Origin: Patescibacteria group bacterium
GTDB lineage: Bacteria > Patescibacteriota > Minisyncoccia > Phycocordibacterales > JAKAEA01
Length of the DNA stretch: 64,000 bases
Assembly: GCA_040387855.1 (NCBI GenBank)
Contig: JAZKCY010000001.1
Span: forward strand, 910,922-974,921
Reading direction: 5' to 3'
Shown one piece after another: positions 10,823 to 29,727 of the stretch. How positions within the stretch are numbered: the first letter of the stretch is position 1; each line of letters opens with the position of its first letter. Under the pieces are notes generated by a model. That model did not search any database. It was not told the DNA's origin and worked only from the letters and a program-made list of their open reading frames with translations. The translations under genes and the position numbers were made by a program.

Positions 10823-11314
10823 TTAAGATTTAAATACCCACAAGCGATTAAGAAAAAAGTTCCAAAATATTGTTACTAATGTTGCTACAATTTTTGCTAC
10901 AAGATCATGCATACCAATATATCTTCGTAAAACTGCAAAAAGAGCAAGACTCAACAACAATGCAGTAATAGTACTGATATAAAACTTTGTAGCCTCTCCC
11001 ATTGATGCTCGCTCTTGTCGTTTGAATGTCCATGAGCGATTGAGGAAATAACTAAAAGTTGCGGCAGCAGCAAATGCAATAATGATAGCTATAGCATACT
11101 TACTATCACCTTCCAGTAATGTGAGTGGTGAATATCGAGTGAGTATATAATACGCACAAAAGTCTATTGCTGTGTTTGCTACACCAATAATACCAAATTT
11201 CACAAACTGGTGAAGTGATTGTTGAGTCTTATGTGATTTTACAAACACAGCTATACAAGCTAAGACAAGACCATCAAATCTAGTAATAAGAGAGTTCATG
11301 GAAATAGTATACAC
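10823..11314 (-). CDS. GtrA-family membrane protein.
   Basis: FVKFGIIGVANTAIDFCAYYIL is typical of GtrA, with 4 transmembrane helices. Confidence 0.75.
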   Translation of the reverse strand: MYTISMNSLITRFDGLVLACIAVFVKSHKTQQSLHQFVKFGIIGVANTAIDFCAYYILTRYSPLTLLEGDSKYAIAIIIAFAAAATFSYFLNRSWTFKRQERASMGEATKFYISTITALLLSLALFAVLRRYIGMHDLVAKIVATLVTIFWNFFLNRLWVFKS

Positions 11315-12489
11315 TAGCCAACCTGTGTTCCGTTTTCATACACAGCAGGAATAACGATCAAGTGATTCTTGATAAGAAATATCCATGACACTGTGAGGTT
11401 CCATGCAAAGCTAATAGTTGTTGCTAATACAATTGCAAGAATATCATTTACCCCAAGTACTAGGAATGATGTAAGTGCTGAAGTGTTTATAAAGAATGCG
11501 GCTGCAAGAATAGCGTACATTGTAACTCGCCCACTTCGTGTCTGTGTTGATTGTGGGAATACCCAGTACGAACCAGTAAGCAAGATTGGAAGACTTCCAA
11601 TAAAGAATGCAGCACTCTTCGCAATGATAAGATGATCAGCAAAAAATGGAATTGATCGAGTGAGTGCTAAATAAAAGATCCAGTCTATTGCAGTGTTGAT
11701 TGCTCCTAAAATCAAAAACTTAGCTAGAATAATATGTCGCTGATCTCCAAGTCGTTTATCATACATACCATAAATTCCGTTTGAGAGATTGAGCTTAATC
11801 TGAAATGTTTCCTTAAGCATCCGAACCATTCCCTTTAATGTTACGTGTGTTCGTTCATCATTTACCCAAGTAATTGGTTCTTCTTTAATCTTAAAACCAA
11901 ACAATTTTGCGATAGCAAGAATTTCCACATCAAATGCCCATGCAACTATTTTTTGCTTGCTAAATATCTTTTCTGCAGCTTTAGCTGTAAACATTTTAAA
12001 ACCGTTTTGTGAATCTGTAATTCCTAGAGGAACCATCATATGAATCATTGTTCGAAATATAGTTCCCAATAATTCACGTAATTTACTCTGATCTTTCACG
12101 AGCACAGATCCATCGATTCGACGAGAACTTACAACAACATCATACCCTTCTTCAAATTTAGGAAAAAATTGTTCAACATGATCAATAGTTGTTGAATTGT
12201 CTGCATCCATAAAGAGGCGGTACTGCCCGGTTGCTTCTAGCATACCTTGTCGTACGACAAAGCCTTTACCGTGATTTTTAGCATTATTACTCAAACGGAG
12301 GTTTTGAATAGATGGAAGTAAGTTTTGTACTACTTCAGCTGTTGTGTCTTTAGAACCGTCATTTACCACGATAATTTCGTAGGTGTAATGTTGTGACTTT
12401 AAATACGTATCAATAGAAAGGAGCGTAGCCTCAATTCGTTCAGCTTCGTTGTATGCCGGTATTACGACAGATAAAAGGGGGTTTTGCAT
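11314..12489 (-). CDS. Family 2 glycosyltransferase (GT2), DPM1-like, with a C-terminal GtrA-like membrane domain.
   Basis: LSVVIPAYNEAERI...VVNDGSKD...FMDADNS carries the DxD motif. The C-terminus contains AINTAIDWIFYLAL. Confidence 0.8.
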   Translation of the reverse strand: MQNPLLSVVIPAYNEAERIEATLLSIDTYLKSQHYTYEIIVVNDGSKDTTAEVVQNLLPSIQNLRLSNNAKNHGKGFVVRQGMLEATGQYRLFMDADNSTTIDHVEQFFPKFEEGYDVVVSSRRIDGSVLVKDQSKLRELLGTIFRTMIHMMVPLGITDSQNGFKMFTAKAAEKIFSKQKIVAWAFDVEILAIAKLFGFKIKEEPITWVNDERTHVTLKGMVRMLKETFQIKLNLSNGIYGMYDKRLGDQRHIILAKFLILGAINTAIDWIFYLALTRSIPFFADHLIIAKSAAFFIGSLPILLTGSYWVFPQSTQTRSGRVTMYAILAAAFFINTSALTSFLVLGVNDILAIVLATTISFAWNLTVSWIFLIKNHLIVIPAVYENGTQVG

Positions 12490-12536
12490 GGTGATTTTAT
12501 AATCTATGCATAGTGTGACGGTAAAAGACCGATTCT

Positions 12537-12595
12537 CTTACAGATTAAGAAGCAAACGCGGGTATTATTATACCTGTAAGAATAAGCCTTTTTTA
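12537..12595 (+). promoter_or_regulatory. Structured leader element with a T-run upstream of the + strand polysaccharide operon.
   Basis: A 7-bp stem CTTACAG...CTGTAAG encloses an inner GGTAT...ATACC hairpin and is followed by CCTTTTTT. It lies in the divergent intergenic region. Confidence 0.25.
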
Positions 12596-12644
12596 GCGTC
12601 TTTATTCCTGAGACCGCAATCGAAATCCATTAACTGAGAAATTT

Positions 12645-13232
12645 ATGACCATCAAAAAATTACTAAAATTACTGCTCATCCTTATCATAGTTGTAGCATT
12701 TTCAAGCACAACAATAAAGGCTTTTGCCGCAGTTGAAGATAAAGCCAACAGTAAAAAGGACGACGATGCCTCACCTACTTTATCAGAAGTCATCAAAGAC
12801 TTGGTAGCTCCCTCACAGGCAACCACAACTGAGCCAGTTGCAGAACAAGAACAAACAGCTACAACAACACCCGTTGTAGAGCCAAAAGAAGAACCAAAGA
12901 CGGTTGAAGAAGTTCTTAATACAGTTATCCCTCCACGAGATACCCCACAGAAAAACCCACCTACAAAATCAACAATAGGCACAACTACTCCAGTTGCAGG
13001 ATCAACAGACGAGACTCCTTTCCAACGTCTTATTGGTGGAATTACACAAGGTTACTCACCTACTAATTACTACTCACCTCTCAATTCACTAAGCCCAATG
13101 GCGACCTATGCATTTAGCTTTTGTGCAATGGTTATGGGAATAGCTGGCGCAGTATGCATTCTACGTGATCCACGTGAAGCAACGGTCTGGGCACCAGAAT
13201 CTATGGCAACATCACCATTATTAGAGCAATAA
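12645..13232 (+). CDS. Secreted or surface hypothetical protein with a Thr/Pro-rich linker.
   Basis: It has a signal peptide, a TTTP-rich low-complexity stretch and a C-terminal hydrophobic segment. It is the first gene of the GH8-GT2-GT-C operon, ending 17 nt before the GH8 start. Confidence 0.5.
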   Translation: MTIKKLLKLLLILIIVVAFSSTTIKAFAAVEDKANSKKDDDASPTLSEVIKDLVAPSQATTTEPVAEQEQTATTTPVVEPKEEPKTVEEVLNTVIPPRDTPQKNPPTKSTIGTTTPVAGSTDETPFQRLIGGITQGYSPTNYYSPLNSLSPMATYAFSFCAMVMGIAGAVCILRDPREATVWAPESMATSPLLEQ

Positions 13233-13248
13233 TCCAACTACCATCACA

Positions 13249-14445
13249 ATGTCACGAAAAACCTGGGGGATATTTTTATTAGTCGGAGCATTCCTAATTT
13301 TAGGATTTGTTGCGTATAAAAATAGTCCAAAACGACAAGTACCAATCATTTTCTCACCTCGAACTGAACTTCTTACACTGTGGGAAGCATACAAACAAGA
13401 ATATATCGAGAAAGGAAGTTTTCGAGTACTTGATAAACAAAAAGATTCTATAACCACATCTGAAGGTCAAAGTTATGCAATGCTTAGAGCAGTGTGGCTT
13501 GATGACAAACCAACGTTTGATGGAGTGTGGAAGTTTACAAAAGACAATCTTCAACACAAAGAAGGAGATAAGCTTTTTGCATGGCTCTTTGGTAAGCAGC
13601 CAGATGGTTCATACGGAATTATGACAAGCCAAGGTGGCCAAAACAGTGCAACTGATGCAGATACAGATATTGCTCTTGCTCTTATCTTTGCTTCTGCGCG
13701 ATGGAACAATCAGGATTATTTAAATGAAGCAAAATTGATTCTTGATAGTGTTTGGGCGCACGAAGTAGTCGATATTAAAGGCCGACCATACCTTGTTGCA
13801 AACAATCTCGAGAAAAACTCACCAACAACAATGGTGGTCAATCCTTCATACTTCTCTCCTTATGCATATCGAGTATTTGCAAAAGTTGATCCAACACATA
13901 ACTGGATGGGCCTTGTAGATACTTCATATGAAGTACTAGAAAAGAGTATGGCGGCTCCTCTTGATCAAACAAAGAGTGCAAATATTCCACCAGACTGGAT
14001 TTTCCTCGATAAAACCAATGGCGCGATCTTACCACCAAAGGCAGAAAATCTTTCTACCAACTTTGGATATGATGCACTTCGCACACCATGGAGAATTGCG
14101 CTTGATTGGCAGTGGTTTGAAGAACCTCGAGCAAAAGCGCTCTTAACTGATATGAAATTCCTAAGCGAACAATGGAATAGTAATTCTGTATTGTATGTGC
14201 CATATAAGCACAATGGCGAACCTGCTGAGAAACATCAATCTGCGGCCTTCTATGGCGGTACAATTGGTTATTTCATGGTAGCAGATCCAGAGAATGCAAA
14301 GGTCATTTATGACAATAAACTCCAAGTACTTTACAACCCAGATACAAATTCTTGGAAAGTTAAGCTCGGCTATTACGACGATAACTGGGTATGGTTTGGA
14401 ATTGCACTTTATAACAATCTTCTCCCAAATCTCGCAGCAAATTAA
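13249..14445 (+). CDS. Glycoside hydrolase family 8 endoglucanase (BcsZ/CelY-like).
   Basis: The GH8 signature A-T-D-A-D-T-D-I-A-L-A-L-I-F-A-S-A-R-W matches exactly. SEGQSYAMLRAV and an N-terminal signal anchor are also present. Confidence 0.85.
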   Translation: MSRKTWGIFLLVGAFLILGFVAYKNSPKRQVPIIFSPRTELLTLWEAYKQEYIEKGSFRVLDKQKDSITTSEGQSYAMLRAVWLDDKPTFDGVWKFTKDNLQHKEGDKLFAWLFGKQPDGSYGIMTSQGGQNSATDADTDIALALIFASARWNNQDYLNEAKLILDSVWAHEVVDIKGRPYLVANNLEKNSPTTMVVNPSYFSPYAYRVFAKVDPTHNWMGLVDTSYEVLEKSMAAPLDQTKSANIPPDWIFLDKTNGAILPPKAENLSTNFGYDALRTPWRIALDWQWFEEPRAKALLTDMKFLSEQWNSNSVLYVPYKHNGEPAEKHQSAAFYGGTIGYFMVADPENAKVIYDNKLQVLYNPDTNSWKVKLGYYDDNWVWFGIALYNNLLPNLAAN

Positions 14446-14456
14446 TTATCACCATT

Positions 14457-16004
14457 ATGACACCCTACACAAAAACAGCCTTGCCTTCGAAGATGTCGTT
14501 TCTGTTCAACAACATCCCAAAATTCTTGGTATTTGTTGATATTGTGATTGCGATTATTTACACATTTATACTTACCTTCTGGTTTCAGGTATCAAATGTG
14601 TATCTTTTCAGTGCACTTATTGTAGGGCAAGCATTCTCATTGTGGATGGCACTCACCTTCCTTTACACCATTTGGGACATGTCATACATGCCAGAAGGTG
14701 ATGATTCTTTTAGTGAGCCTGTAGATGTATACATTACTGTAGCTGGTGAACCAACAAACATTGTTGAAGAAACACTTGTCGCAGCTCTTGCAATGGAGTA
14801 TCCAAAGTTTAGTGTCTATCTTTTGAACGATGGATTTGTTGCTAAAAAAGACAATTGGAAAGAAATTGAAGACTTAGCTATTAAATACGGTGCTGGATGT
14901 ATCACACGTACAGTTCCTGGAGGAGCAAAAGCAGGAAATATAAATAACGCACTCAAGAATACAACAAGTCCATTTGTTGCTATCTTTGATGCTGATCATA
15001 TTCCTCACAAAGACTTCCTTCAAAAGACAATGCGATACTTTGCAGATGAAAAAATGGCATTCGTACAGTCTCCTCAATACTACAAAAACTATGCTACAAA
15101 TTATGTAACTCGTGGTGCATGGGATCAACAGTCACTCTTTTTCGGATCAATTCTTAAAGGAAAGAATCGTCACAATGCAGTAAGTATGTGTGGAACCAAC
15201 ATGGTTATCCGACGTGAACCCCTAATTGCAGTAGGTGGTATGTGTGATACCAACATTGCTGAAGACTTCGTAACAGGTCTTATGATCCACAAGCTTGGAT
15301 ACAAGTCTACCTATGTTCCTGAAGTACTCGCAGAAGGACTCGCACCAGAAGACTTCCTGTCATATTACAAGCAGCAGCTACGATGGGCACGAGGGAGTTT
15401 GGAAGTGCTTTTCAAGTACAATCCAATCTTTAGTAGAAAACTCACATGGGCACAAAAGATTCAATACATGTCATCTGCTAGTTATTACCTTTCAGGAATC
15501 TTTGTGATCATGAATGCGATAATTCCAATTATCTTCTTCTTTACTGGTTCTGTTCCCTTCCTGATTTCAACAATGGCATTGGCAATTGTGTTTATTCCTT
15601 ATATCTTCTTACTCATTTACAGTCTCCAGCTTTCAACCAACTTCACCTATAGCTTCCAAGCAATCGCATTCTCAATGGCATCATGGTCTATTCATGTCCG
15701 CGCATTATACGAGCTTATTATTGGAAGAAAGAGTGGGTTCGCGATTACTTCAAAAACAGCGATTAAAGGAAACTTTATAAAACTAGTACGTCCTCATATT
15801 GCTTACTATGTGATAGCATTAATTGGTCTCGGTGTTGCTCTCTTCCGAGAAGGATTGAGCGCATCGGTATCAACAAACATGGCATGGGTGCTTTTGAATG
15901 TTGTCATCTTTTACCCATTTATTAAAGCATCACTTCCTGAAAAGGAATCAAAGGAAGAAGCAGCCGTTGTAACTACAAACGCATATGCATTACCAAAACG
16001 ATAA
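14457..16004 (+). CDS. Processive GT2 beta-glycan synthase, BcsA/cellulose-synthase-like catalytic subunit (no PilZ domain).
   Basis: The BcsA catalytic motifs are present: DAD (FDADH), AED (IAEDFVTG), the QxxRW motif as KQQLRWARGSLEV, and VSMCGTN in place of FFCGS. Transmembrane helices flank the catalytic domain. Confidence 0.8.
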   Translation: MTPYTKTALPSKMSFLFNNIPKFLVFVDIVIAIIYTFILTFWFQVSNVYLFSALIVGQAFSLWMALTFLYTIWDMSYMPEGDDSFSEPVDVYITVAGEPTNIVEETLVAALAMEYPKFSVYLLNDGFVAKKDNWKEIEDLAIKYGAGCITRTVPGGAKAGNINNALKNTTSPFVAIFDADHIPHKDFLQKTMRYFADEKMAFVQSPQYYKNYATNYVTRGAWDQQSLFFGSILKGKNRHNAVSMCGTNMVIRREPLIAVGGMCDTNIAEDFVTGLMIHKLGYKSTYVPEVLAEGLAPEDFLSYYKQQLRWARGSLEVLFKYNPIFSRKLTWAQKIQYMSSASYYLSGIFVIMNAIIPIIFFFTGSVPFLISTMALAIVFIPYIFLLIYSLQLSTNFTYSFQAIAFSMASWSIHVRALYELIIGRKSGFAITSKTAIKGNFIKLVRPHIAYYVIALIGLGVALFREGLSASVSTNMAWVLLNVVIFYPFIKASLPEKESKEEAAVVTTNAYALPKR

Positions 16005-17490
16005 AACTAATAATGATCGAAGTGCCTTTCTCCCACTATTGGGCCTCATTATCTTTGTAATTGCAATTGCGTTCCTTTTCTTTACTCAGCAAAGTCTACG
16101 CCTCGATGAAGCGCAAAGTTTATGGCAAACAAGTCATACGCCAACTAAAATATTAAACATCATTGCTCAAGATGTGCATGTACCGTTTTATCACATGATC
16201 TTGCACTTCTGGCAGTTATTTCTTGGTAATACCGTAGAAACAGGACGAGCACTTTCTCTCATTTTCTTTGTGCTCTCAATTCCTGCAATGTACTTCTTAG
16301 GTAAACGTGCATTCAATAGAAATGTTGCGTTGTTTGCAACAACTCTCTATGCTGTTTCACCATTTATGAATTGGTACGGAAGTGAAATTCGAATGTACAG
16401 TTTGCTTACACTTCTTACAATTCTTTCTCAGTATTTCTTCTTAGGAATCTATAAATTACGAGATGGTGATTCTTGGATTGGATATTCTATTGTTGCACTC
16501 TTTGGAATCTTCACCCACTACTTCTTCTTCTTTGTACTTCTTGTACAAGCATTATTCTATTTTATTTATCGACCTGGCTTTGCACCCAATTCACTTAAAA
16601 AATTTATAACTATAGCTGTACTTTTGGTACTCATATTTAGTCCATGGGTCTACTATATGCAAATTCAAGGTAGTGGAAGTACTACAGCTCCAATGCTTAC
16701 TGCTCCATCTACTATTGATGTTTTCAATTCATTCTCACAATTCTTGTTCGGATTCCAGAATGATCACATGAATACCCTTCTTGTTTCATTGTGGCCAATT
16801 ACAGTGCTCTTAGGATTCTTGGCTTTACGAGAAAACGAAAAAGTATCTTCAGACGCAGTGTATATGTTGATGTCGATTTTGATTCCAATGGTAGCTGCGT
16901 TTGTGGTGAGTGTTACCCTTCGACCATTGTTTGTATCACGATATCTGATTCTCACCATACCTTCTTTGTATTTATTTATTGGTTGGGTATTTTCTACCTA
17001 TCCAAAGCAATTGCAGAATGTAGTAAAAGCAGTTCTTATCTTCGCAATGCTTGCTAGTCTTGCAATTGAAATTGTAAGTCCTACAACTCCAACCAAAGAA
17101 AACTACCGAGAAGCTGTAACCTATCTTGAACAGCGCACAACAGCTCAAGATGTTATTGTTCTCTCAGCACCATTCACTCGATACCCTGTAGAATATTATT
17201 ATCGTGGACCAGCAGAACTCACGACCCTTCCAATTTGGAATCAGCTTACTGGTGCTATGCCTCAGTTTAGTGAAGAAAAACTTCCAGAAGAAATCAACAC
17301 TATTAAGCAAGGTCATAAAATTGCCTGGGTTCTCTTAAGTTATGATCAGGGATATTCAGAAACAATCCGACTCTACATGGACAACAACTTTGAACGAATT
17401 GATACCCACGTATTCTCTCCCGACCTCAAACTCTATGTCTATAAATTAAACTACGACGAGCCAATCTTTGGTCAAGCTACATCTCAATAA
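15985..17490 (+). CDS. GT-C fold glycosyltransferase (family GT39/GT83, PMT_2/ArnT-like) membrane protein.
   Basis: The 501-aa polytopic protein has the N-terminal loop LRLDEAQSLWQT with a DE motif, and YAVSPFMNWYGSEIRMY. Its start overlaps the GT2 stop by 20 nt. Confidence 0.6.
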   Translation: MHYQNDKTNNDRSAFLPLLGLIIFVIAIAFLFFTQQSLRLDEAQSLWQTSHTPTKILNIIAQDVHVPFYHMILHFWQLFLGNTVETGRALSLIFFVLSIPAMYFLGKRAFNRNVALFATTLYAVSPFMNWYGSEIRMYSLLTLLTILSQYFFLGIYKLRDGDSWIGYSIVALFGIFTHYFFFFVLLVQALFYFIYRPGFAPNSLKKFITIAVLLVLIFSPWVYYMQIQGSGSTTAPMLTAPSTIDVFNSFSQFLFGFQNDHMNTLLVSLWPITVLLGFLALRENEKVSSDAVYMLMSILIPMVAAFVVSVTLRPLFVSRYLILTIPSLYLFIGWVFSTYPKQLQNVVKAVLIFAMLASLAIEIVSPTTPTKENYREAVTYLEQRTTAQDVIVLSAPFTRYPVEYYYRGPAELTTLPIWNQLTGAMPQFSEEKLPEEINTIKQGHKIAWVLLSYDQGYSETIRLYMDNNFERIDTHVFSPDLKLYVYKLNYDEPIFGQATSQ

Positions 17491-17491
17491 T

Positions 17492-17530
17492 AAAAACTAA
17501 AACACCCTGATTTAAATCAGGGTGTTTTGT
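17492..17530. terminator. Bidirectional intrinsic terminator.
   Basis: AAAAACTAAAA-CACCCTGATTTAAATCAGGGTG-TTTTGTT. The stem sequence is shared with the terminator at 3249. Confidence 0.6.
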
Positions 17531-17868
17531 TATGCTTCAGGATTTAATGATTCAATAAATGCCTGTACAGAATCAGGACTTTGAAAGTCAAAGAGTGTAC
17601 ATTTTTCTTCAGGCTTTTCCTTATCCGATACGAGGAGATAATATAATTCATACTGTTTGTAATTCTGATATTTAGTCTGTAGACGTGTAGCAAATCCCGT
17701 TAAGAGCTCTTTTGTCTTTTGTGGATCATCCATGTATAGATTAAGCAGGATTTGATCAAGTGATTTTGTAATCTGCTCACGGCTTTTTGGAGGCTCATGA
17801 TAAACATGTCCATGCTCATGATCATTTGTGGGTTCTTCTTCTTGATAACTACCAAAGCCCTCATTCAT
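17530..17868 (-). CDS. Hypothetical protein with a His-rich N-terminus.
   Basis: 112 aa (HEHGHVYHE). No known domain is recognisable. Confidence 0.45.
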   Translation of the reverse strand: MNEGFGSYQEEEPTNDHEHGHVYHEPPKSREQITKSLDQILLNLYMDDPQKTKELLTGFATRLQTKYQNYKQYELYYLLVSDKEKPEEKCTLFDFQSPDSVQAFIESLNPEA

Positions 17869-17990
17869 ACCTTAATTATGAACTCAATATTTTTTTTGTA
17901 CAGTATATTAGTATGATCATTCTTGCATTTACCTTTGAAACTTGTAGTATTGCCACTGGACGAGATGTCACCCACACAAGGAGGTTAACC

Positions 17991-18464
17991 GTGCCTACGG
18001 AACCTAATACGATTCATGCGGTTTTCGCAGACCAAATTTGCAGCGATTGCTATGTCCCTAGGCCTCACTGGAGGCATTCGGGCGCGTTGGTTCCTGAGGG
18101 AAGCCCGCTTGGGCACTTCTGCGACGACTGCTGGGAAGTCCGCAAGAAGGGAGCAAAACTCCCCCTCGGGACAACGGTCTACACCGACCGTGCCCAGGGC
18201 AAGTACGTCCTACTTCGCTTCCCCGACAAGCTCCCGCCGCCGTCAGGAATTGAGGTTCCCGACATTGCCGCCCTTGGCGAACGTGTCAGAAGGCATCTCG
18301 GCGTGCGTGTCAACAACGCAAGCGTCATGAGAGCAGTGCAGTTCTTTTGGGATCCCAAGCTTGATCAAGAGCTCGTCAACAGGTTCTTAAACGAGCTTCA
18401 TGGCGAGATCCGAATACTCCTCTTCGCCGCGCGCAACGTTCCATACGTCGCTCCGGAAAGCTGA
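17991..18464 (+). CDS. GC-rich hypothetical protein with CxxC...CxxC Zn-ribbon-like motifs (157 aa, GTG start).
   Basis: A perfect AAGGAGG ribosome-binding site lies 7 nt upstream of the GTG at 17991. GC is about 58%. The two Cys pairs are CSDC...CDDC. Confidence 0.5.
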   Translation: MPTEPNTIHAVFADQICSDCYVPRPHWRHSGALVPEGSPLGHFCDDCWEVRKKGAKLPLGTTVYTDRAQGKYVLLRFPDKLPPPSGIEVPDIAALGERVRRHLGVRVNNASVMRAVQFFWDPKLDQELVNRFLNELHGEIRILLFAARNVPYVAPES

Positions 18465-18492
18465 GAAACCTGCCATCAACCTGTGTACCCCG

Positions 18493-18514
18493 CCGACTTC
18501 ATGTCGGTTTTTTT
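18493..18514 (+). terminator. Intrinsic terminator.
   Basis: CCGACTTCATGTCGG followed by TTTTTTT. Confidence 0.45.
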
Positions 18515-18555
18515 ATTGATAGTTTATGAATTTTAATAATAAAAAACAGCATCGG

Positions 18556-18879
18556 TTAGGACTGCTGCCAACGAACTTCTCCTCTTTTGTGCACGAAATC
18601 GTACTCGCCTTCGACAACCCCAATATACTTATACTCGGGGCTATCAACCCAGGCTACAAAGCTCATCCTCCCAAAGTCATCGGAGCTGGGCTGCTTTGTC
18701 CTCCAAACCAAAAAAACGGCGTAAAGCGAGGGACTCCAGGTATCAGACTCAGCCGATACTTTCAGCCCCAATCTCACTCGATGTCGTGCTGGCAACTGAA
18801 TTCTTGCCGCTTGAGCTAGGCACAGAACGATATCTTCGGGTGCCAGCTCATTCATAATACAGAACTTCTGCTGTCCCAT
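18556..18879 (-). CDS. GC-rich hypothetical protein (107 aa).
   Basis: An AAAGGAG ribosome-binding site lies 7 nt upstream of the ATG (MGQQKF...). It is convergent with the 17991 gene. GC is about 50%. Confidence 0.45.
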   Translation of the reverse strand: MGQQKFCIMNELAPEDIVLCLAQAARIQLPARHRVRLGLKVSAESDTWSPSLYAVFLVWRTKQPSSDDFGRMSFVAWVDSPEYKYIGVVEGEYDFVHKRGEVRWQQS

Positions 18880-18944
18880 GATTGAGCTCCTTTTAGCAAT
18901 GAATTTCCCCACGATGATAGTAAATTATTTACTAAGAAATGCAA

Positions 18945-18990
18945 GTAACACAAAACCCGCATACTAATATGCGGGCTTTATGCTTTTTTT
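18945..18990 (-). terminator. Intrinsic terminator downstream of the 19001 hydrolase gene.
   Basis: An 8-bp stem CCCGCATA-ctaa-TATGCGGG with flanking A/T runs. Confidence 0.5.
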
Positions 18991-19000
18991 CTGGTAACTA

Positions 19001-20785
19001 TTATTTCACAAATACATTTACTGCTTTCTGAGAAAATGTAGTATTGCCGGCATTATCTTTTGATACGAAGTTGAGTGTGTATGGACCCTGGCCTTTCCAA
19101 TTCCATCCAATAAAATCTACCAATGCTTCCTTGTGAGGATAATCTTGATTACTATTAAACATTTCAACAAGTCCCCCTCCGTCTACTTGCCAATACATTT
19201 TATAATCTGCAATTGCTTTGTTTGTAAGCATAGCCTTAAGTGGTACAACTCCATTCACAGAGCTACCATCTGTTGGCCACCAGATATTTGTTGAGTATGT
19301 GGTTGGTGTTGGAGTTGGAGTTGTTGGCGGGGTTGTTGTTGCTGGAGGAGTTGTTTGACCTTGGCCAACAGTGATTGTTGAAACATTTCCATTCCAATAA
19401 TATGCAGTCGTCCAATTATTATTGAATACTCCTACTTTTAATTTATAAGTTCCAGCTGTTGTTGGAGTCCATGATGTTGTATACGAACCTGGTTGCCCAT
19501 TTGAGACTGTTTGGTTCTCATAAAACTTCTGAAATATTTTCTGATCCGCAGAGTTATATACTTCAAGGTCTACGATTGCTCCAGATACACTTCCAGAGTT
19601 TGTAAGATCCACTTTGAGACTCACCGGATTATTTACGGTATTCCCCGTTACAGTTCCTGTTGTATTCCAAGCACCTGGTTGTGGCTGGGTTGGGTTTGTA
19701 GGATTTGTGGGTGTTGTTCCTGTTGTGCCATACCACTTTTTAAGAGTGTCAAATGCAGGCTTATTTTGAGGCGTATAATCACGATTTCCTTGTCCTCCAG
19801 CTGCAGGATCAGCTATCCAATCCCACAAATACATACCTTCTATATGTGATTTATCATTCCAAAAGCTAAACAATGCTTCATAATTATTTACTTGCTCTTG
19901 AGCATTGTATGCACCACCCATTCCACTATTCCATGGCTGACTATGAGAATTATCTACACTCATGTATCCAATCTCAGTAAAAATCACCTTCTTTCCATAT
20001 TGATCTGAAATTGGTTTTATTTTCGAGGTATTCCAATTGTTCCATGATGACTTAAGGGCTTCTTGAGATGGATTCCACTGTCCTTCTGCTAGTGGGTAAT
20101 ATCCAGAAATACCTATGTAATCTAATTTATTCCAAAATCCAATATGTGGAACTTCTTCTGCAAAATCTCCCGATCCCCAATTTGCACTATAGGTCAAAAA
20201 TCCTGGAAAACGTGTTCTTAGACTATCAATCATAGTTGACCAGCGCTGAGTATTGTCACTGTTTGACGTATACGTAGCGACGGTAATTAATTCTGATCCC
20301 ACCACAATACCAGCTGCTCCTGTTTGCCTTCCGATATCACCTAAATGATTTAGTTTGGCACTGTAATTTGTATAAAAAGCACTTCTGTTACTAGGATTTA
20401 TACTCGCTCGCCAAACTCCATCATGTGATTCAAGATGGGGTTTAAGAACAACTTTAAAACCGAGTGATTTTGCATAGGTAATACCATCAATCAATGCCGC
20501 GTCTGTAGGAGTATTCCATCCATTCTGAATATCAGATGCTGTTGTATTTGCTACGTAATATGGAATAACTAACGATACAGTGTTTGCACCTGTAGACCGC
20601 AAATTTCGCAACGAAGCACGATACGCCTCGGTTGCATATTCACCACTGGATGTTGGATCTATACTTGCTCCTTTTTGCCAGTCTCCTGTTGCCGCTGATG
20701 CAATGTGTGGACTTGTTAATGCAAACGATCCGACAAAAAGTGCGACTATCACAAACAGACTACAGATTTTTGATGTTGTTTTCAT
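19001..20785 (-). CDS. Secreted TIM-barrel glycoside hydrolase of clan GH-A (GH5/26/113-like) with C-terminal beta-sandwich domains.
   Basis: It has a signal peptide. The candidate acid/base Glu is in VGSELITV and the nucleophile Glu in VIFTEIGY, which is the GH-A arrangement. A T/P-rich linker, an Ig-like domain and a C-terminal module of about 90 aa (W-Q-V-D-G-G...W-N-W-K-G-Q-G-P-Y) follow. Confidence 0.7.
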   Translation of the reverse strand: MKTTSKICSLFVIVALFVGSFALTSPHIASAATGDWQKGASIDPTSSGEYATEAYRASLRNLRSTGANTVSLVIPYYVANTTASDIQNGWNTPTDAALIDGITYAKSLGFKVVLKPHLESHDGVWRASINPSNRSAFYTNYSAKLNHLGDIGRQTGAAGIVVGSELITVATYTSNSDNTQRWSTMIDSLRTRFPGFLTYSANWGSGDFAEEVPHIGFWNKLDYIGISGYYPLAEGQWNPSQEALKSSWNNWNTSKIKPISDQYGKKVIFTEIGYMSVDNSHSQPWNSGMGGAYNAQEQVNNYEALFSFWNDKSHIEGMYLWDWIADPAAGGQGNRDYTPQNKPAFDTLKKWYGTTGTTPTNPTNPTQPQPGAWNTTGTVTGNTVNNPVSLKVDLTNSGSVSGAIVDLEVYNSADQKIFQKFYENQTVSNGQPGSYTTSWTPTTAGTYKLKVGVFNNNWTTAYYWNGNVSTITVGQGQTTPPATTTPPTTPTPTPTTYSTNIWWPTDGSSVNGVVPLKAMLTNKAIADYKMYWQVDGGGLVEMFNSNQDYPHKEALVDFIGWNWKGQGPYTLNFVSKDNAGNTTFSQKAVNVFVK

Positions 20786-20910: not shown

Positions 20911-23403
20911 TTAAGGATTTACGTAGATCGTAACATCTTTCTGTCCAATAACTTTCTGTTCAAGATCCTTGGCAATGAATGTGAATACATACGGACCATT
21001 ATCTTTCCAAGTCCATCCTGTAAAATCTACCCATGATTCTTTTGATGTACCGTCTTCACTTGAAACCATATCTACAAGTCCTCCCCCATCTACCTGCCAT
21101 GTGAGTGAATAATCTGCAGCATTTTTTCCGGTTACTCGTGCTTTAAGAAGATGTAAACCTTTCATTACCTGTCCTTCAGTTGGTTCACTTATTTCGAGAA
21201 TAGGTGTAACTGGTGGAGTAACTGGTGGTGTGGTTTGTGACACTACGGTGACTTCAATTGTATATGCAGCACCTGCTGTTCCAGTTCCTGCAGTTCCACT
21301 ATAAGGAACAACACGTACTGTGTGTTTCCCTAATGGAGCATTCCATTTATTGTAATTTGTACCTCCTAGATCGCCTCCAATTCCATATGGTGCATTTGTC
21401 TCAGTTGCGACTTTAACTCCATTGAGGAAGAAAACAAGGCTTCCAGGCTTAGATTTTAGATTGGGAACGATTGTTATATTTGGAGTTTCTGCAAGATTGA
21501 TAGTATCAGTTGCATTCAATACTCGAATTGGCTGATCAGTATCTGAATTGTAGAGTGAAAGTGATTCTATAACTGTGCCAGTTGTAGGTGGAGGAGGTGG
21601 TGGTGTTGTGCTCTTTGCAACAAAGGTTACATCAATAGAAAGAGATGTTCCTATACTTCCCGCTGCACCACTTTGTGAGTAAGGAGTAGCCTTGATTGTA
21701 TGCTTACCAAGTGGAGCACTCCATGGAGTATAATTTCCTCCTGCGTCAGTTCCTAATGCATATGGTGCAGCACTTTCTGTTCGAATAGTTTTACCATCAA
21801 CAAAGAATTTAACACTCTTTGTACCGGTGCCTGCAATTGCTTGGATATTCATTTCAGGATAATCAGCAAGAACCACAGTATCTCCTGTTTTTAATTCTCG
21901 TACCGGTTTGTCAGTCTTAGCATCAATCAACATGAATGCAGAAACCTTATTACCAGTAGGTGTAGTTGGTGGTGTAACAGGTGGAGTCACTGGAGGTGTT
22001 GGAGGAGTACCAGTTCCTTGTGGCACTACAAACGATACGACACTATTTCCCCAGTATAAATTCTTTGACCAATCATTTGAGAATACTCCCACTTTCACAA
22101 CATGCTTTCCTGTTGTTGTTGGGGTCCAATTCACAGTATATTGACCAGGCATACTATTTGAAATAGTTTGATGATCATATACTTGCTGAAAGACTAGCTG
22201 ATTTGATGCATTATAGATTTCAATATCAACAACAACATCTGATGCTGATTGTGAATTTGTAACTTTTACTGAAAGATTTGAGGCAGTATTCACTGGATTG
22301 ATAAGTCCAGATGCTGATGCTCCCCACACTCCTACAGGATTTGGATTACCGGTACCTTTGAACCACTCTGTCATTGTTTGCTGAGCCTTTTTGTTTTGAG
22401 GAGTGAAATGGTTTTCTGATGGCCCTCCAGTATTTGGATCAATGTTCCAGTTCCAAAGATGAACACCTTGCATATATGGCTTGCTATCCCAATATTTGAA
22501 CAATGCTTCATAGAGATTTGCTTGTTCTTGTTCATTTACATTTCCAGCACGACTTCCGTTCCATGGATCTGAATGTGCACCATCAACACTTCTGTATCCT
22601 ATTTCAGTAAAGACGATTGGTTTTTTATAAGTATCGTAAAGAGGCTTAATTTTAGTTGTATCCCATGTTTCCCATGACTTCATAAAACTATCTACTGTTC
22701 CTCCTGACAATGGGTAATATGCTGAAATTCCCAAGTAATCAAGTTTGTCCCAGAAAGCGATATGTGGTGCTTCTTCAGCAAAATCTCCTGCTCCCCAGTT
22801 TGCACTATAGGTAAGTAAACCAGAGTATCGTGCTCGAACATCAGCAATCATTTTCACCCATCGCTGAGTGTTGTCTGGATTTTCAGTGTAGGCAGCTACA
22901 TTAATGAGTTCTGTTCCAATACAAATCTCTTCAGCTTTTGTTTCCTGAGCAATTACAGCAAGTTTGTTCAACATAGCTCCATAACTTGCATACCAGGTAT
23001 TTCGATTTGTTGGTTTTATGAGAGCTCTCCATGTTCCTCCACGTGCTTCTATGTGTGGCTTAAGCATCACCATCATGCCCTGACTATGAACATAATTGAT
23101 AGCATCTTTGAGTGAGGCATCGGTAGGTGTATTCCATCCACTAAGAATCTCAGAACCAGAATTACCTTCTTGGTAATAAGTAACTACAAGAGACACGTAG
23201 TTTGCACCTGTAGATTTCAAATTTCGTACAGACTGCTTAAACTGTTCTCCTGAGAAGTCAGTTGTTGATAACGAATAAATACTGGCGCTTTTTTGCCAGT
23301 TTGAAATATCTGCCTGTGTATTATTTGCTAAAAAAGGCATATAAGAGGCCAAAAGACCTACAATTATAGCCGGAACCATCATTAAGACCATTATCTTTTT
23401 CAT
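20911..23403 (-). CDS. Secreted GH-A clan glycoside hydrolase, a paralog of the 19001 gene, with extra tandem beta-sandwich repeats.
   Basis: The N-terminal catalytic domain is colinear with the 19001 protein (IGTELINV, VFTEIGY). Two repeats of about 110 aa carry APY-x-LG-x-D-x-GG...W-x-APLGKHT. Pro/Thr linkers and the same C-terminal W-Q-V-D-G-G module follow. Confidence 0.7.
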   Translation of the reverse strand: MKKIMVLMMVPAIIVGLLASYMPFLANNTQADISNWQKSASIYSLSTTDFSGEQFKQSVRNLKSTGANYVSLVVTYYQEGNSGSEILSGWNTPTDASLKDAINYVHSQGMMVMLKPHIEARGGTWRALIKPTNRNTWYASYGAMLNKLAVIAQETKAEEICIGTELINVAAYTENPDNTQRWVKMIADVRARYSGLLTYSANWGAGDFAEEAPHIAFWDKLDYLGISAYYPLSGGTVDSFMKSWETWDTTKIKPLYDTYKKPIVFTEIGYRSVDGAHSDPWNGSRAGNVNEQEQANLYEALFKYWDSKPYMQGVHLWNWNIDPNTGGPSENHFTPQNKKAQQTMTEWFKGTGNPNPVGVWGASASGLINPVNTASNLSVKVTNSQSASDVVVDIEIYNASNQLVFQQVYDHQTISNSMPGQYTVNWTPTTTGKHVVKVGVFSNDWSKNLYWGNSVVSFVVPQGTGTPPTPPVTPPVTPPTTPTGNKVSAFMLIDAKTDKPVRELKTGDTVVLADYPEMNIQAIAGTGTKSVKFFVDGKTIRTESAAPYALGTDAGGNYTPWSAPLGKHTIKATPYSQSGAAGSIGTSLSIDVTFVAKSTTPPPPPPTTGTVIESLSLYNSDTDQPIRVLNATDTINLAETPNITIVPNLKSKPGSLVFFLNGVKVATETNAPYGIGGDLGGTNYNKWNAPLGKHTVRVVPYSGTAGTGTAGAAYTIEVTVVSQTTPPVTPPVTPILEISEPTEGQVMKGLHLLKARVTGKNAADYSLTWQVDGGGLVDMVSSEDGTSKESWVDFTGWTWKDNGPYVFTFIAKDLEQKVIGQKDVTIYVNP

Positions 23404-23487: not shown

Positions 23488-23955
23488 TTATAGGCAGGTT
23501 ACATCATCCACAGCACTCAAACTTGAACCTGCAGTTACCTCAGCTTTTCCTAAATAATCCACACAATACAATCCACCGGGAGTAGACTTTAATGGGATTT
23601 CAATTGCCCACCCAGTAGAGGTGTCATTACATGTTGAGCTATCATAATTACCAATTGCATCTACAGATACTGATACATCAGAACTTTCAGCAGCAGCTGC
23701 ATTTACCATAGGATATATTCCCCCTACAGTTCCTTCTGTACAAATGGTGTCATAACTAAATTCGAAACCCGCATTATCTGTTGCAAATTGTTCTGCCTGA
23801 GTACGTGCACTTGCTAGATTAGTTTTTACCGCTGTATCACTTGCCTTACTTCGAGCAACATTAAGAGAAACTAAGATGACAGCAGATAAAAGACTTATTA
23901 TTGCAATAACTACTAAAAGTTCTATAAGAGTAAAACCGTTTTTATTTTTGCTCAT
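23488..23955 (-). CDS. Type IV pilin or pseudopilin with a prepilin-type N-terminal cleavage/methylation domain.
   Basis: MSKNKNG|FTLIELLVVIAIISLLSAV shows the G/F cleavage site and Glu at position +5. Confidence 0.8.
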   Translation of the reverse strand: MSKNKNGFTLIELLVVIAIISLLSAVILVSLNVARSKASDTAVKTNLASARTQAEQFATDNAGFEFSYDTICTEGTVGGIYPMVNAAAAESSDVSVSVDAIGNYDSSTCNDTSTGWAIEIPLKSTPGGLYCVDYLGKAEVTAGSSLSAVDDVTCL

Positions 23956-24001
23956 GTTTACTACATTATAAGACAATAAATTTTATTAACTAGGGATAAC
24001 A

Positions 24002-24062: not shown

Positions 24063-25961
24063 TTAGTATGCTGAACGCTTTGCAATATCGAGAGCATATT
24101 CTGGCCACCATTCCCCTGCATTTGGACCTCCGTTACAGTTTCCGTCAGATCCTCCAGGGCCCTTTACCCACAAGAATGCATCCACTAATGGATATCCGGT
24201 ATTTGTAGTCGGCTTTGCTCCGAGAGCTCGTCCCCATGGGTTACACCATTCATTGTTTGGTGCAGAACCAAGTCCGTTTCGGCCGGTATCAATTACGAAG
24301 TGCTTGCCTCCAACCTTATCTGAAACCTGAGTTCCGTACGCAATATTTTTCTGAGTGTCTACGAAGTTTGAAGTATTCAATGCGAATCCATCAGCTTGAG
24401 CAATACCTGCTTGCTTCAATCGATTTGCCATATCATCTGGTGTAATCCATCCAGGGTGACCGGCATCAATGTAGACTGAAATATTACCCTTTGATTTGAA
24501 TGTACTTACGGCATCTTTGATTAGTGAGAATCGTTCTGCTGTTCGTGATCCGAGACAATCAGTAAGTGTTGTACCATCTGGTTCAATTATCATTGCTGCT
24601 TTGTTTCCTCCAATTGCATCAGCAATTTTTCGAATCCAATTTCGATATTCATCTGCACTTCCCACTCCTCCGGCTGAGTACTGACCGCAGTCTCGTCCTG
24701 GAATATTGTAAGCTACAAATACAGGCATTGCTCCTTGAGCTTGTGCATCCTTAATTGCATTTTGCACATCTCGAGTAATATCCCAGTTCCATCCTCCAAG
24801 CCATGTCACACTTGCACCGTTCGCAATTTTCTTAAGCTGTTCTGCATCTGCAGGTCGTGAATTCTGCCATTGCTTAATAACTTGTGAAGCTTCATTATTT
24901 GGATTTACATACAACTTCTGACCACTAATAGGATTACCCGCTATAGCCTGCACAGGAGCCGTTACAGCTTGAGTAATAGTATTTACAACAGTAGCTGTTT
25001 GATTTTTTTTCTGAGTATCTGTTGGAGATACTGTTGGTGATGTAGTAACAAGTGCTGGCTTCGCCACAGTTACAGAACCTACAGACATACTTGTATCCTT
25101 AGTTGTAATTAAGTTTCCAGAATTATCTCTAACAACAAAAGTAATTGCGTATGGCCCAGAACCTTTCCAATTCCATGTAGATACATCTACAGAAGCTTCT
25201 TTGTGGTCACCCACGTTGTTCATTACTGTTTCTCCACCATTATCAACCTTCCAAGACATTTTGTAACTATCTGGAGTTGAATTATCAAGCTTTGCACTGA
25301 AGACAGTAACACCACCTACGGTTGAACCTGAAGTTGGAGCAATAACACTCACGGTTGAATATATTGCTGGAGGCGTGGTTGTTTGTGGTTGCTGAGTAGG
25401 AGCAGGTGCCTGAGCAGATGCTACAGGAACTCCTGCTGCTTGTAGCAATGCACTACCTACTGATGCAGATAATGTTGATGACGCTGCTTCTATTTGTACT
25501 GGGCCTTGTGGTGCATCAGGAGTACTGATTTCAATACTTGTTTCACCAAGTGAATTATTATTTTTATCTAATGCTTTAAAGGTAATCTTGTATGGACCAG
25601 ATCCTCGCCATGTCCATGACTTAAGATCTACCACAGCCTCCTTATGAGGATGATCTGTGTATGAATCATACATAGAATTCATCTGACCGTTATCTACTGA
25701 CCAAGACATAGTGTAATCAGAAACATTTTTGTCCTGTACCATTGCCTTGAATGTTTGTGTATCACCTATCTTTGCCCCCTGAGTTGGCCACCAAAGATTA
25801 ATGTTACCATCTGCGTTTACTCCCGTAGTAACAGTATGAGGGAGTATGTCAGATTTGTTTAACCACTCAAACGCATACACACCACCCAACCAAAGAACTG
25901 TTATTAAGAGAAGTTTTGAAGATAAAGAAAGTGCTTTTTTTAGAGACCTATTGTATATCAT
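24063..25961 (-). CDS. Glycoside hydrolase family 6 (cellulase/cellobiohydrolase-like) with two N-terminal W-x-VDNG modules.
   Basis: Both GH6 signatures are present: VFVAYNIPGRDCGQYSAGG and MIIEPDGTTL. A signal anchor and two copies of the shared 90-aa module lie at the N-terminus. Confidence 0.85.
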   Translation of the reverse strand: MIYNRSLKKALSLSSKLLLITVLWLGGVYAFEWLNKSDILPHTVTTGVNADGNINLWWPTQGAKIGDTQTFKAMVQDKNVSDYTMSWSVDNGQMNSMYDSYTDHPHKEAVVDLKSWTWRGSGPYKITFKALDKNNNSLGETSIEISTPDAPQGPVQIEAASSTLSASVGSALLQAAGVPVASAQAPAPTQQPQTTTPPAIYSTVSVIAPTSGSTVGGVTVFSAKLDNSTPDSYKMSWKVDNGGETVMNNVGDHKEASVDVSTWNWKGSGPYAITFVVRDNSGNLITTKDTSMSVGSVTVAKPALVTTSPTVSPTDTQKKNQTATVVNTITQAVTAPVQAIAGNPISGQKLYVNPNNEASQVIKQWQNSRPADAEQLKKIANGASVTWLGGWNWDITRDVQNAIKDAQAQGAMPVFVAYNIPGRDCGQYSAGGVGSADEYRNWIRKIADAIGGNKAAMIIEPDGTTLTDCLGSRTAERFSLIKDAVSTFKSKGNISVYIDAGHPGWITPDDMANRLKQAGIAQADGFALNTSNFVDTQKNIAYGTQVSDKVGGKHFVIDTGRNGLGSAPNNEWCNPWGRALGAKPTTNTGYPLVDAFLWVKGPGGSDGNCNGGPNAGEWWPEYALDIAKRSAY

Positions 25962-29709: not shown

Positions 29710-29727
29710 AGTATACCAGGATAAGCT

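Follow-up and report, generated by a model that had tools for sequence, protein, structure and literature searches.

A PilZ-less BcsA-like synthase co-encoded with a GT-C glycosyltransferase in Patescibacteria and some Actinobacteria

Introduction

Cellulose synthesis in bacteria is known chiefly from the pair BcsA and BcsB acting under cyclic di-GMP (c-di-GMP) control, with GlxA in Streptomyces and CcsB in clostridia as exceptions. BcsB, CcsB and GlxA are all membrane-anchored partners that are needed by the synthase and are not mutually homologous (PMC11022532). Here we analyse a four-gene operon from a Patescibacteria group bacterium, located in a stretch of 64,000 nucleotides (hereafter, the window; positions 910,922 to 974,921 of contig JAZKCY010000001.1, assembly GCA_040387855.1). 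The operon encodes a threonine- and proline-rich (T/P-rich) protein, a glycoside hydrolase of family 8 (GH8), a BcsA-like synthase of glycosyltransferase family 2 (GT2) and a polytopic glycosyltransferase of the GT-C type, and the last three genes form a module that is kept together in Patescibacteria and in a nested clade of Actinobacteria.

The window synthase shares with the proteobacterial BcsA-BcsB-BcsZ systems (types I–III) a homologous catalytic and channel core, including the catalytic and gating-loop motifs, and a GH8 gene lies alongside it as bcsZ does. Unlike BcsA, it lacks a PilZ domain and the N-terminal extension (the alignment starts at Escherichia coli residue 235), and its operon contains no BcsB, BcsC or other Bcs subunit, the fixed partner being the GT-C protein. 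The CslA-GlxA-CslZ system of Streptomyces (with LpmP) also belongs to a monoderm host and combines a membrane-anchored partner other than BcsB with an endoglucanase encoded alongside (PMC11022532); however, that partner is the copper radical oxidase GlxA and not a glycosyltransferase, and in the BcsA-like synthase CslA part of the PilZ motif remains, along with a response to c-di-GMP (PMC11022532), whereas the window synthase has no room for PilZ. The clostridial CcsA-CcsB-CcsZ proteins are likewise a Gram-positive trio of synthase, partner and hydrolase (PMC11022532, PMC8892547), set apart, as judged from their descriptions, by a BcsB-like functional partner and acetylation genes, with no GT-C described. 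BcsG offers a parallel of another kind, being a BcsA-bound membrane enzyme that modifies the nascent glucan outside the cell with a lipid-derived donor (PMC8892547; structures 9b8v and 9fmz), but it belongs to the alkaline-phosphatase-type superfamily, uses phosphatidylethanolamine as donor and is optional.

A GtrB/DPM1-like synthase, a GtrA-type protein and a GT-C enzyme occur together, as in our window, in the GtrA/GtrB/GtrC, CsbB-GtcA-YfhO, GacI-L and PpgS-Rv3779 systems. Gtr-, GacL-, YfhO- and Rv3779-type systems decorate polysaccharides that have already been exported. The acceptors known for them, O-antigen, teichoic acids, rhamnan and arabinogalactan, reach the surface by other export routes, whereas here the partner of the GT-C protein, at times in a single chain, is a BcsA-type synthase. 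Literature searches covering Patescibacteria, the Candidate Phyla Radiation (CPR), Saccharibacteria, GT-C enzymes and Geodermatophilaceae, with subscription journals outside their reach, retrieved no description of a GT-C-coupled cellulose synthase, and no such type figures in a review of Bcs systems from 2021 or in an operon survey from 2020. Since both protein families are well known, the novelty lies in their obligate pairing.

Organization of the operon

The operon and its flanking signals comprise the following features.

12645-13232, + strand: gene for a T/P-rich tail-anchored protein, 195 amino acids, no Pfam family
13249-14445, + strand: gene for a membrane-anchored, BcsZ-like GH8 endo-beta-1,4-glucanase, 398 amino acids, PF01270
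14457-16004, + strand: gene for a BcsA-like processive GT2 synthase, 515 amino acids, assigned from TIGR03030, PDB matches and an AlphaFold2 (AF2) model
15985-17490, + strand: gene for a GT-C protein (PMT_2 type), 501 amino acids, assigned from PF13231 and its AF2 fold
12490-12644, no strand: divergent intergenic region of 155 nt, presumed to hold the promoters of both transcription units
17498-17529, no strand: hairpin with a 14-bp stem directly 3' of the GT-C stop codon, a terminator-like operon end

The initial annotation had described four tightly linked plus-strand open reading frames (ORFs) between 12645 and 17490, and these are all present. It had also reported a 20-nt overlap, which indeed joins the 3' end of the synthase gene to the start of the GT-C gene, and gaps of 17 and 12 nt, whose exact values are 16 and 11 nt. 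The promoters are presumed from the position of the divergent region only; a scan for the sigma-70 consensus was uninformative, with fewer sites than in shuffled sequences. Scans for tRNA genes and Rfam families gave no matches in the window, which has a G+C content of 38.5%, and no NCBIfam model matched any of the four operon proteins at its own cut-off. The description of the operon as minimal needs qualification, because genes for a GtrB-like GT2 and a GtrA protein lie divergently upstream and GH6 and GH113 genes lie downstream, and these neighbours are probably part of the system.

The synthase is a BcsA-type core that ends before PilZ

The GT2 protein carries the motifs that had been assigned to it, namely DAD at residue 178, CGTN at 245, AED at 268 and QQLRW at 306, and further synthase motifs are found as LNDG (123), AKAGNINNA (157) and the gating-loop motif FAITSK (428). 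The D, DxD, (T)ED, QxxRW, KAGN and FxVTxK-type motifs are invariant in 14 homologues. The first four align with those of E. coli BcsA, and the window protein differs little from BcsA in the UDP-binding KAGN block. The position of FFCGS is occupied by SMCGTN, in which only C-G is kept, although MCGTN is near-invariant within the family.

Profile and structure comparisons converge on the same assignment. The best NCBIfam match was to CelA (TIGR03030, 8e-81), over profile positions 80-573 of 714, ending before PilZ, and the best PDB match was to E. coli BcsA (7lby, 2e-59), over BcsA residues 235-704, which again lie before PilZ. Scores were nevertheless under the equivalog cut-offs, with 272 vs 699 bits for TIGR03030 and 218 vs 992 bits for PRK11498. 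The AF2 model (predicted local distance difference test, pLDDT, 77.7) matched BcsA in Foldseek (9b8v/4p00, TMq 0.80), with plant CesA, CslF6 and hyaluronan synthases ranking lower, and it predicts a core of six transmembrane (TM) helices with interface helices and a gating loop. A simple DPM1-like enzyme would have been a possible confusion, but both hidden Markov models (HMMs) and fold place the protein among processive QxxRW synthases, beside BcsA.

The absence of PilZ and BcsB, as originally proposed, was borne out. No PilZ family was found in the synthase by Pfam scan, and the protein ends about 24 residues past its last TM helix; without PilZ, we infer that the synthase is not gated by c-di-GMP. 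Neither BcsB nor PilZ was found in the operon, in the scanned neighbours or by Pfam in the genes flanking five related loci over 6-8 kb, the rest of the genome lying outside this search. Nor was any GlxA-type family present among 20 scanned ORFs of the window or in the flanks of the related loci.

The GH8 enzyme and the GT-C partner

The second gene encodes a GH8 protein (PF01270, E 1.5e-45) with an N-terminal membrane anchor. It contains an exact match to the PROSITE signature PS00812 at residues 134-152, ATDADTDIALALIFASARW, as had been noted from the letters, and the assignment holds on alignment: both the signature and the catalytic residues, Glu in SEGQ (71-74) and Asp in YDALR (274), line up with Clostridium thermocellum CelA (1cem). 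Its best solved relatives are endo-1,4-beta-glucanases, including BcsZ. With 147 bits against the BcsZ equivalog NF008305 (cut-off 299), the enzyme is BcsZ-like by context and falls below the curated threshold for a BcsZ orthologue.

The fourth protein matched PF13231 (PMT_2) with an E-value of 1e-11 and 45.7 bits, vs a Pfam cut-off of 26.1, and its AF2 model (pLDDT 80) had ArnT as best fold match (5f15, TMq 0.61, E 1.4e-7), followed by STT3/PglB, ALG9/12, AftD and Pmt4. It is thus, as first read, a PMT_2/ArnT-like polytopic protein, which also has a small C-terminal extracytoplasmic alpha/beta domain. The true PMT family PF02366 gave no match to it at E <= 0.01, leaving PMT_2 as the only match. 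In database records, homologues are named "glycosyltransferase" and "glycosyltransferase family 39 protein" (NCBI) or, for GT-C homologues, "mannosyltransferase" (JGI). The acidic motif of its first loop, L40-D41-E42, lies within the invariant stretch QSLRLDEAQSLWQ; this motif and many aromatic extracytoplasmic residues are invariant in 16 homologues with identities down to 50%, and the LRLDE motif is kept in five of the seven fusion proteins checked (see below). Because of this conservation, in fusions as well, the GT-C protein is probably catalytic.

GH8, synthase and GT-C genes are co-located and co-diverge

Homologues of the synthase are very numerous: a word-indexed search retrieved more than 2,400 at E <= 1e-10, an exhaustive search 1,725 cluster representatives at E <= 1e-30, and 525 or more loci turned up when species-representative genomes were scanned. 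The 80 best of these loci come from Paceibacteria/Parcubacteria, Saccharimonadia, Doudna-, Kaiser-, Adler- and Taylorbacteria, Gracilibacteria, Microgenomates and WWE3, and also from cultured Actinobacteria with about 50% identity (Klenkia, Geodermatophilus, Quadrisphaera and "Streptomyces sp. NP160").

We searched six-frame ORFs of all loci with the window proteins. GH8, BcsA-like and GT-C genes were adjacent and co-directional in 64/64 loci with enough flanking sequence; 61 were scored by script, and three high-G+C actinobacterial loci, with overlong ORF calls, were confirmed by eye. The order changes to GH8, GT-C, synthase in one clade. Pairwise distances of synthase and GT-C are correlated (r = 0.85), and the major clades of their neighbour-joining (NJ) trees are congruent. 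The coupling to a GT-C protein, proposed initially from a single locus, therefore stands on firmer ground than first claimed, given this adjacency and co-divergence and the recurrent fusions described below.

Other genes are linked less regularly. GH6 occurred at up to 8 kb from the module in 22, and GH113 in six, of the 45 loci that had flanks of 6 kb or more on both sides, and GtrA genes also recur near the module in related loci. All-against-all clustering of the other flanking ORFs gave no further conserved partner, and in this comparison GT-C was the only universally linked membrane protein.

Genes for a sensor histidine kinase and an OmpR-type response regulator were seen a few kb from the module, in no fixed position, in about ten loci (L012, L027, L038, L044, L057, L064, L068, L076, L083 and others), and also in the more distant locus L090; they could provide a transcriptional control that replaces c-di-GMP. 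The module also appears in metagenome-assembled genomes (MAGs) labelled "uncultured Gammaproteobacteria", Verrucomicrobiia, Acidobacteriaceae and Chloroflexi (L062, L071-L073, L077, L082, L083 and L085; L016, L026 and L039). The "Gammaproteobacteria" loci cluster with Levyi- and Blackburnbacteria, two of them (L077 and L083) sit on contigs of 650-770 kb, and L077 has a G+C content of about 37%; the taxon labels of these records are probably wrong.

Recurrent fusions between synthase and GT-C

The exhaustive search revealed proteins of about 1,000 amino acids in which a synthase makes up the N-terminal half and a GT-C protein the C-terminal half (P0241, of 995 amino acids, P0242 and P0243). The P0241 gene was found on three independent assemblies (four contigs read). 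The three proteins show 41–45% mutual identity and have different nearest unfused relatives, with 57–62% identity, which indicates that they are independent; the fusion has thus arisen at least three independent times within the family, and again in a more distant clade. Using P0241 as a query, we retrieved 12 full-length BcsA-like::GT-C fusions with at least 42% identity to it; about 20 others, less closely related, come from MAGs of Actinomycetota and Gaiellaceae. The topology of such a fusion is plausible if BcsA and ArnT are taken as guides, as the synthase C-terminus and the GT-C N-terminus would both be cytoplasmic.

Other PilZ-less BcsA-like cores are fused to GtrA (P0405), to GH8 (P0496 and others) and to GH26 (P0491), or carry an N-terminal DPM1-like GT2 (P0249, P0251 and P0473), and in L090 a GT2::synthase fusion is followed by GT-C and GH8 genes. 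That GtrB-like GT2, GtrA, GH8 and GT-C are each fused to a BcsA-like core somewhere is the strongest available genomic argument that these parts work as one system. The 1033-amino-acid protein P0283 of Demequina was considered as a further fusion and excluded, as it has no PMT_2 domain and lies in a GH81/HlyD-type cluster.

Several unusual arrangements were seen among the more distant relatives. P0262, P0267, P0270 and P0482 include tandem double synthase domains (about 1,070–1,200 amino acids) and a synthase core joined to a Ser/Thr protein kinase. A metagenome contig with 73% G+C (L093) encodes a distant BcsA-like::GT-C fusion together with a GT2, a CDP-alcohol phosphatidyltransferase, a GT4, an LPG_synthase_TM protein and GH26, which hints that this fused clade makes a different polymer, possibly mannose-containing or lipid-linked. 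In Demequina sp. NBRC 110054 (L094), an HlyD/membrane-fusion-like protein comes after each of two PilZ-less BcsA-like synthases (703 and 1033 amino acids), a GH81 gene (beta-1,3-glucanase family) lies between them and there is no GT-C, a curdlan-like arrangement; the C-terminal half of the 1033-amino-acid protein had no Pfam match.

Actinobacterial modules branch within the Patescibacteria radiation

Synthase phylogenies were outgroup-rooted NJ trees with 100 bootstraps; they are distance trees, and taxonomy was taken from MAG labels. The actinobacterial synthases (L052, L054, L056 and L058-L061) were monophyletic in 100/100 replicates, formed an exclusive clade with three Saccharimonadales synthases (L028, L037 and L041) in 100/100 replicates, and this clade fell inside the Patescibacteria radiation, again in 100/100 replicates. 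The GT-C tree gave the same placement of the actinobacterial sequences. The G+C content is 44–48% in the Saccharimonadales loci and 74–77% in the actinobacterial loci. This pattern suggests an old horizontal transfer of the whole GH8-synthase-GT-C module between an episymbiont lineage and Actinobacteria.

The first gene encodes a lineage-specific tail-anchored protein

The first product had been called a secreted T/P-rich protein. Both the signal peptide and the T/P-rich composition hold, although the protein is not simply secreted: a cleavable signal peptide (..AFA|AVE) is followed by a T/P/E-rich extracellular stretch of low complexity and by a C-terminal TM helix, so that it is tail-anchored, and a weakly conserved juxtamembrane motif, NYYxPL..LSPxxT, precedes the helix. 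Syntenic counterparts share this architecture and the C-terminal motif. Of 73 loci, 29 have such a gene 5' of GH8 when strict criteria are used, and the actinobacterial loci have none; its product thus appears to be a lineage-specific accessory and not a core component. We also considered it as a BcsB homologue and rejected this, since it has no Pfam match and no meaningful NCBIfam match; with its signal peptide and C-terminal anchor, it could be called BcsB-like in architecture only.

In the actinobacterial locus L052 (5250-6746), and at equivalent places in L054, L056 and L059-L061, there is a GT4-like gene (Glycos_transf_1-type motif) with a C-terminal extension. As seen by eye from the translation alone, it sits between the GtrB-like GT2 and GH8 genes, the position of the tail-anchored gene in Patescibacteria.

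Proposed function and alternative explanations

We give an even chance to the proposal that the module is a synthase-dependent beta-1,4-glucan machine of a monoderm bacterium with a small genome, with the GT-C protein as an obligate partner that adds a sugar from a polyprenyl-phosphate donor to the exported glucan. The BcsA-like protein would use a nucleotide sugar, with UDP-glucose as the likeliest substrate, to polymerise beta-1,4-glucan and pass it through a channel of its own in the membrane, and would be ungated by c-di-GMP while retaining the gating loop. The GT-C protein would replace BcsB as fixed partner, lying beside the synthase in the membrane in a physical complex that in some lineages is a single polypeptide, and from the outer face it would move a sugar from the lipid donor to the emerging glucan. 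The donor would be made by a GtrB/DPM1-like GT2 and flipped by GtrA-type domains, both encoded by the divergent upstream genes; its sugar could be mannose, for instance. The anchored GH8 enzyme would trim or release chains as BcsZ does, the nearby GH6 enzyme may aid passage of the polymer or wall remodelling as CslZ does in Streptomyces, and the tail-anchored T/P-rich protein would be a lineage-specific accessory, perhaps a stabiliser or scaffold resembling the BcsB anchor. Control would presumably be transcriptional or exerted via a partner. By analogy with BcsB, CcsB and GlxA, the GT-C protein probably also fills the role of the non-homologous membrane-anchored partner.

The linkage of GH8, of endoglucanase type, and GH6 leads us to infer beta-1,4-glucosidic bonds. 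The linked hydrolase differs among PilZ-less clades, being GH8 with GH6 here, GH26 in the fused Actinomycetota-type clade and GH81 in Demequina, and hence seems to track the polymer.

Several observations weigh against this proposal. A profile of the GT-C family gave no match to PDB sequences at E <= 1, so that donor and acceptor cannot be read from homology. The SMCGTN motif and the scores far under the CelA and BcsA cut-offs leave room for a product other than plain cellulose, and GH113, as well as the GH26 of relatives, are mannanase families, which makes mannose-containing polymers possible. With strict thresholds, only 20 of the 45 loci have a GtrB-like GT2 at up to 8 kb from the module, and with a laxer E <= 1e-5 about 40 of 84 have one. 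Moreover, GT-C is universal although decoration systems are usually optional, a pattern no less compatible with an essential role, either structural or ligase-like.

Such a ligase-like role is the core of one alternative, in which the glucan would be lipid-primed: the DPM1-like GT2 would make polyprenyl-phosphate-glucose, the synthase would elongate it, and the GT-C protein would ligate the glucan to wall, lipid or protein, for example the T/P-rich protein. There is a precedent in the pneumococcal type 3 synthase, a processive GT2 that starts on a lipid (mentioned in PMC8892547). The retention of GT-C in 64/64 loci speaks for this scheme, and fusions of the synthase to GT-C, DPM1-like GT2 and GtrA would fit a single linear pathway better than an optional decoration. 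Nevertheless, by fold and Pfam the GT-C protein is nearest to ArnT/PMT_2 types, and not to STT3 or WaaL-type en-bloc transferases; enzymes of the ArnT/PMT_2 type use polyprenyl monophosphates to transfer sugars singly. Nor has a lipid primer been needed by the BcsA-type synthases examined to date, and we consider the scheme improbable. Another role for GT-C would be that of a Pmt/Ppm1-like protein O-glycosyltransferase acting not on glucan but on secreted T/S/P-rich proteins, for example the product of the first gene and the GH113 and GH6 linkers. In its favour are the PMT_2 match, the JGI "mannosyltransferase" names and the T/P-rich candidate substrates encoded in and beside the operon, and the more distant GT-C of L090 also matches the true PMT family PF02366. 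The window protein, however, lacks that match at E <= 0.01, GT-C is kept in actinobacterial loci without a T/P-rich gene, and a recurrent GT-C::synthase fusion is hard to explain for a general protein glycosylase, which makes this role hardly probable.

It might also be that the chemistry of the GT-C protein is irrelevant or lost, and that it serves mainly as a non-homologous second subunit that stabilises or activates the synthase, as BcsB, CcsB or GlxA would. Every characterised bacterial cellulose synthase needs a membrane-anchored partner, these partners being mutually non-homologous (PMC11022532), and GT-C is the only universally linked membrane protein here; still, the invariance of the putative catalytic residues in 16 homologues, and of LRLDE in five of seven fusions, favours retained activity, and we regard a purely structural partner as very improbable. 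Finally, the product could be a polymer other than beta-1,4-glucan, such as glucomannan, mannan, a mixed-linkage or a beta-1,3-glucan, with the GH6, GH8 and GH113 enzymes serving nutrition on environmental plant polymers. To the acceptor motif and low equivalog scores already mentioned can be added the GH113 genes next door, a GMPPB-like nucleotidyltransferase near one fused homologue, and the pairing of related PilZ-less cores with GH26 or GH81. We find this reading distinctly improbable, because GH8 is linked in 64/64 loci and fused to related cores, with solved relatives that are endo-1,4-beta-glucanases including BcsZ, because characterised GH6 enzymes are beta-1,4-glucanases, and because the UDP-binding KAGN block hardly differs from its BcsA counterpart.

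Returning to the glucan machine with GT-C as obligate partner, it would add a further and very widespread solution to those known for cellulose synthesis, spread across most Patescibacteria lineages and having as partner a glycosyltransferase that is proposed to use lipid-linked sugars. If the GT-C protein modifies the nascent chain, the product would be a new natural cellulose derivative and would link a synthase-dependent route to a polyprenol-dependent one; it would also give the uncultured, host-dependent Patescibacteria a concrete pathway for a surface polymer. A bolder extension, which we consider unlikely, is that the module represents a hybrid line, dependent on both synthase and lipid carrier, for a glycosylated or lipid-primed cellulose-like glucan fixed covalently to the envelope, which would act in ultra-small Patescibacteria as a surface or attachment polymer; the whole module would have passed from a Saccharimonadia-like episymbiont lineage to Actinobacteria (Geodermatophilaceae and Quadrisphaera), a phylum with known hosts of Saccharibacteria. 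Its presence in cultured Geodermatophilus, Klenkia and Quadrisphaera, together with the single-chain fusions, makes the module directly testable by genetics, biochemistry and cryo-electron microscopy (cryo-EM).

Neighbouring genes and additional observations

The genes flanking the operon that may belong to the system are all on the minus strand.

10823-11314, - strand: GtrA-family small polytopic membrane protein, putative polyprenyl-phosphate-sugar flippase (PF04138 GtrA_DPMS_TM, E 1.1e-27)
11314-12489, - strand: GT2 fused to a GtrA/DPMS-type TM domain, polyprenyl-phosphate-sugar synthase-like (PF00535, 7.9e-30, and PF04138)
19001-20785 and 20911-23403, - strand: two secreted GH113 hydrolases with T/P-rich linkers and Ig-like domains (PF22612, 3.5e-48 and 4.5e-56)
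24063-25961, - strand: secreted hydrolase of GH6, a cellulase family (PF01341, 2e-62)

The best PDB relatives of the GtrB-like GT2 are the polyprenyl-phosphate-glucose synthase GtrB (sll0501, 3.5e-16), the Dol-P-Man synthase of Pyrococcus furiosus and ArnC. With the GtrA-like protein and the GT-C protein, it completes in the window a three-component set of the Gtr type. The GH6 enzyme is a probable CslZ-like accessory; CslZ is itself a GH6 protein. The GH113 hydrolases are possible accessories with a weak link to the system; in L091, a GH113 gene directly follows a fused synthase gene on the same strand.

The two GH113 paralogues of the window have Ig/filamin-like domains and a common C-terminal module, and the pair is followed by a type IV pilin-like gene with an N_methyl motif (23488-23976). 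Farther downstream there is a second processive-type GT2 (31263-32567; Chitin_synth_2/Glyco_tranf_2_3) beside a Polysacc_deac_1 protein (29728-31278), with a further deacetylase at 26877-28733; together, these genes (26877-32567) look like a separate synthase and deacetylase cluster of the poly-N-acetylglucosamine (PNAG) or chitin type. Long ORFs overlap on both strands at 17787-18912, and the one scanned (17787-18464) had no Pfam match. The G+C content reaches 0.448 at 18001-20000, vs 0.385 for the window overall.

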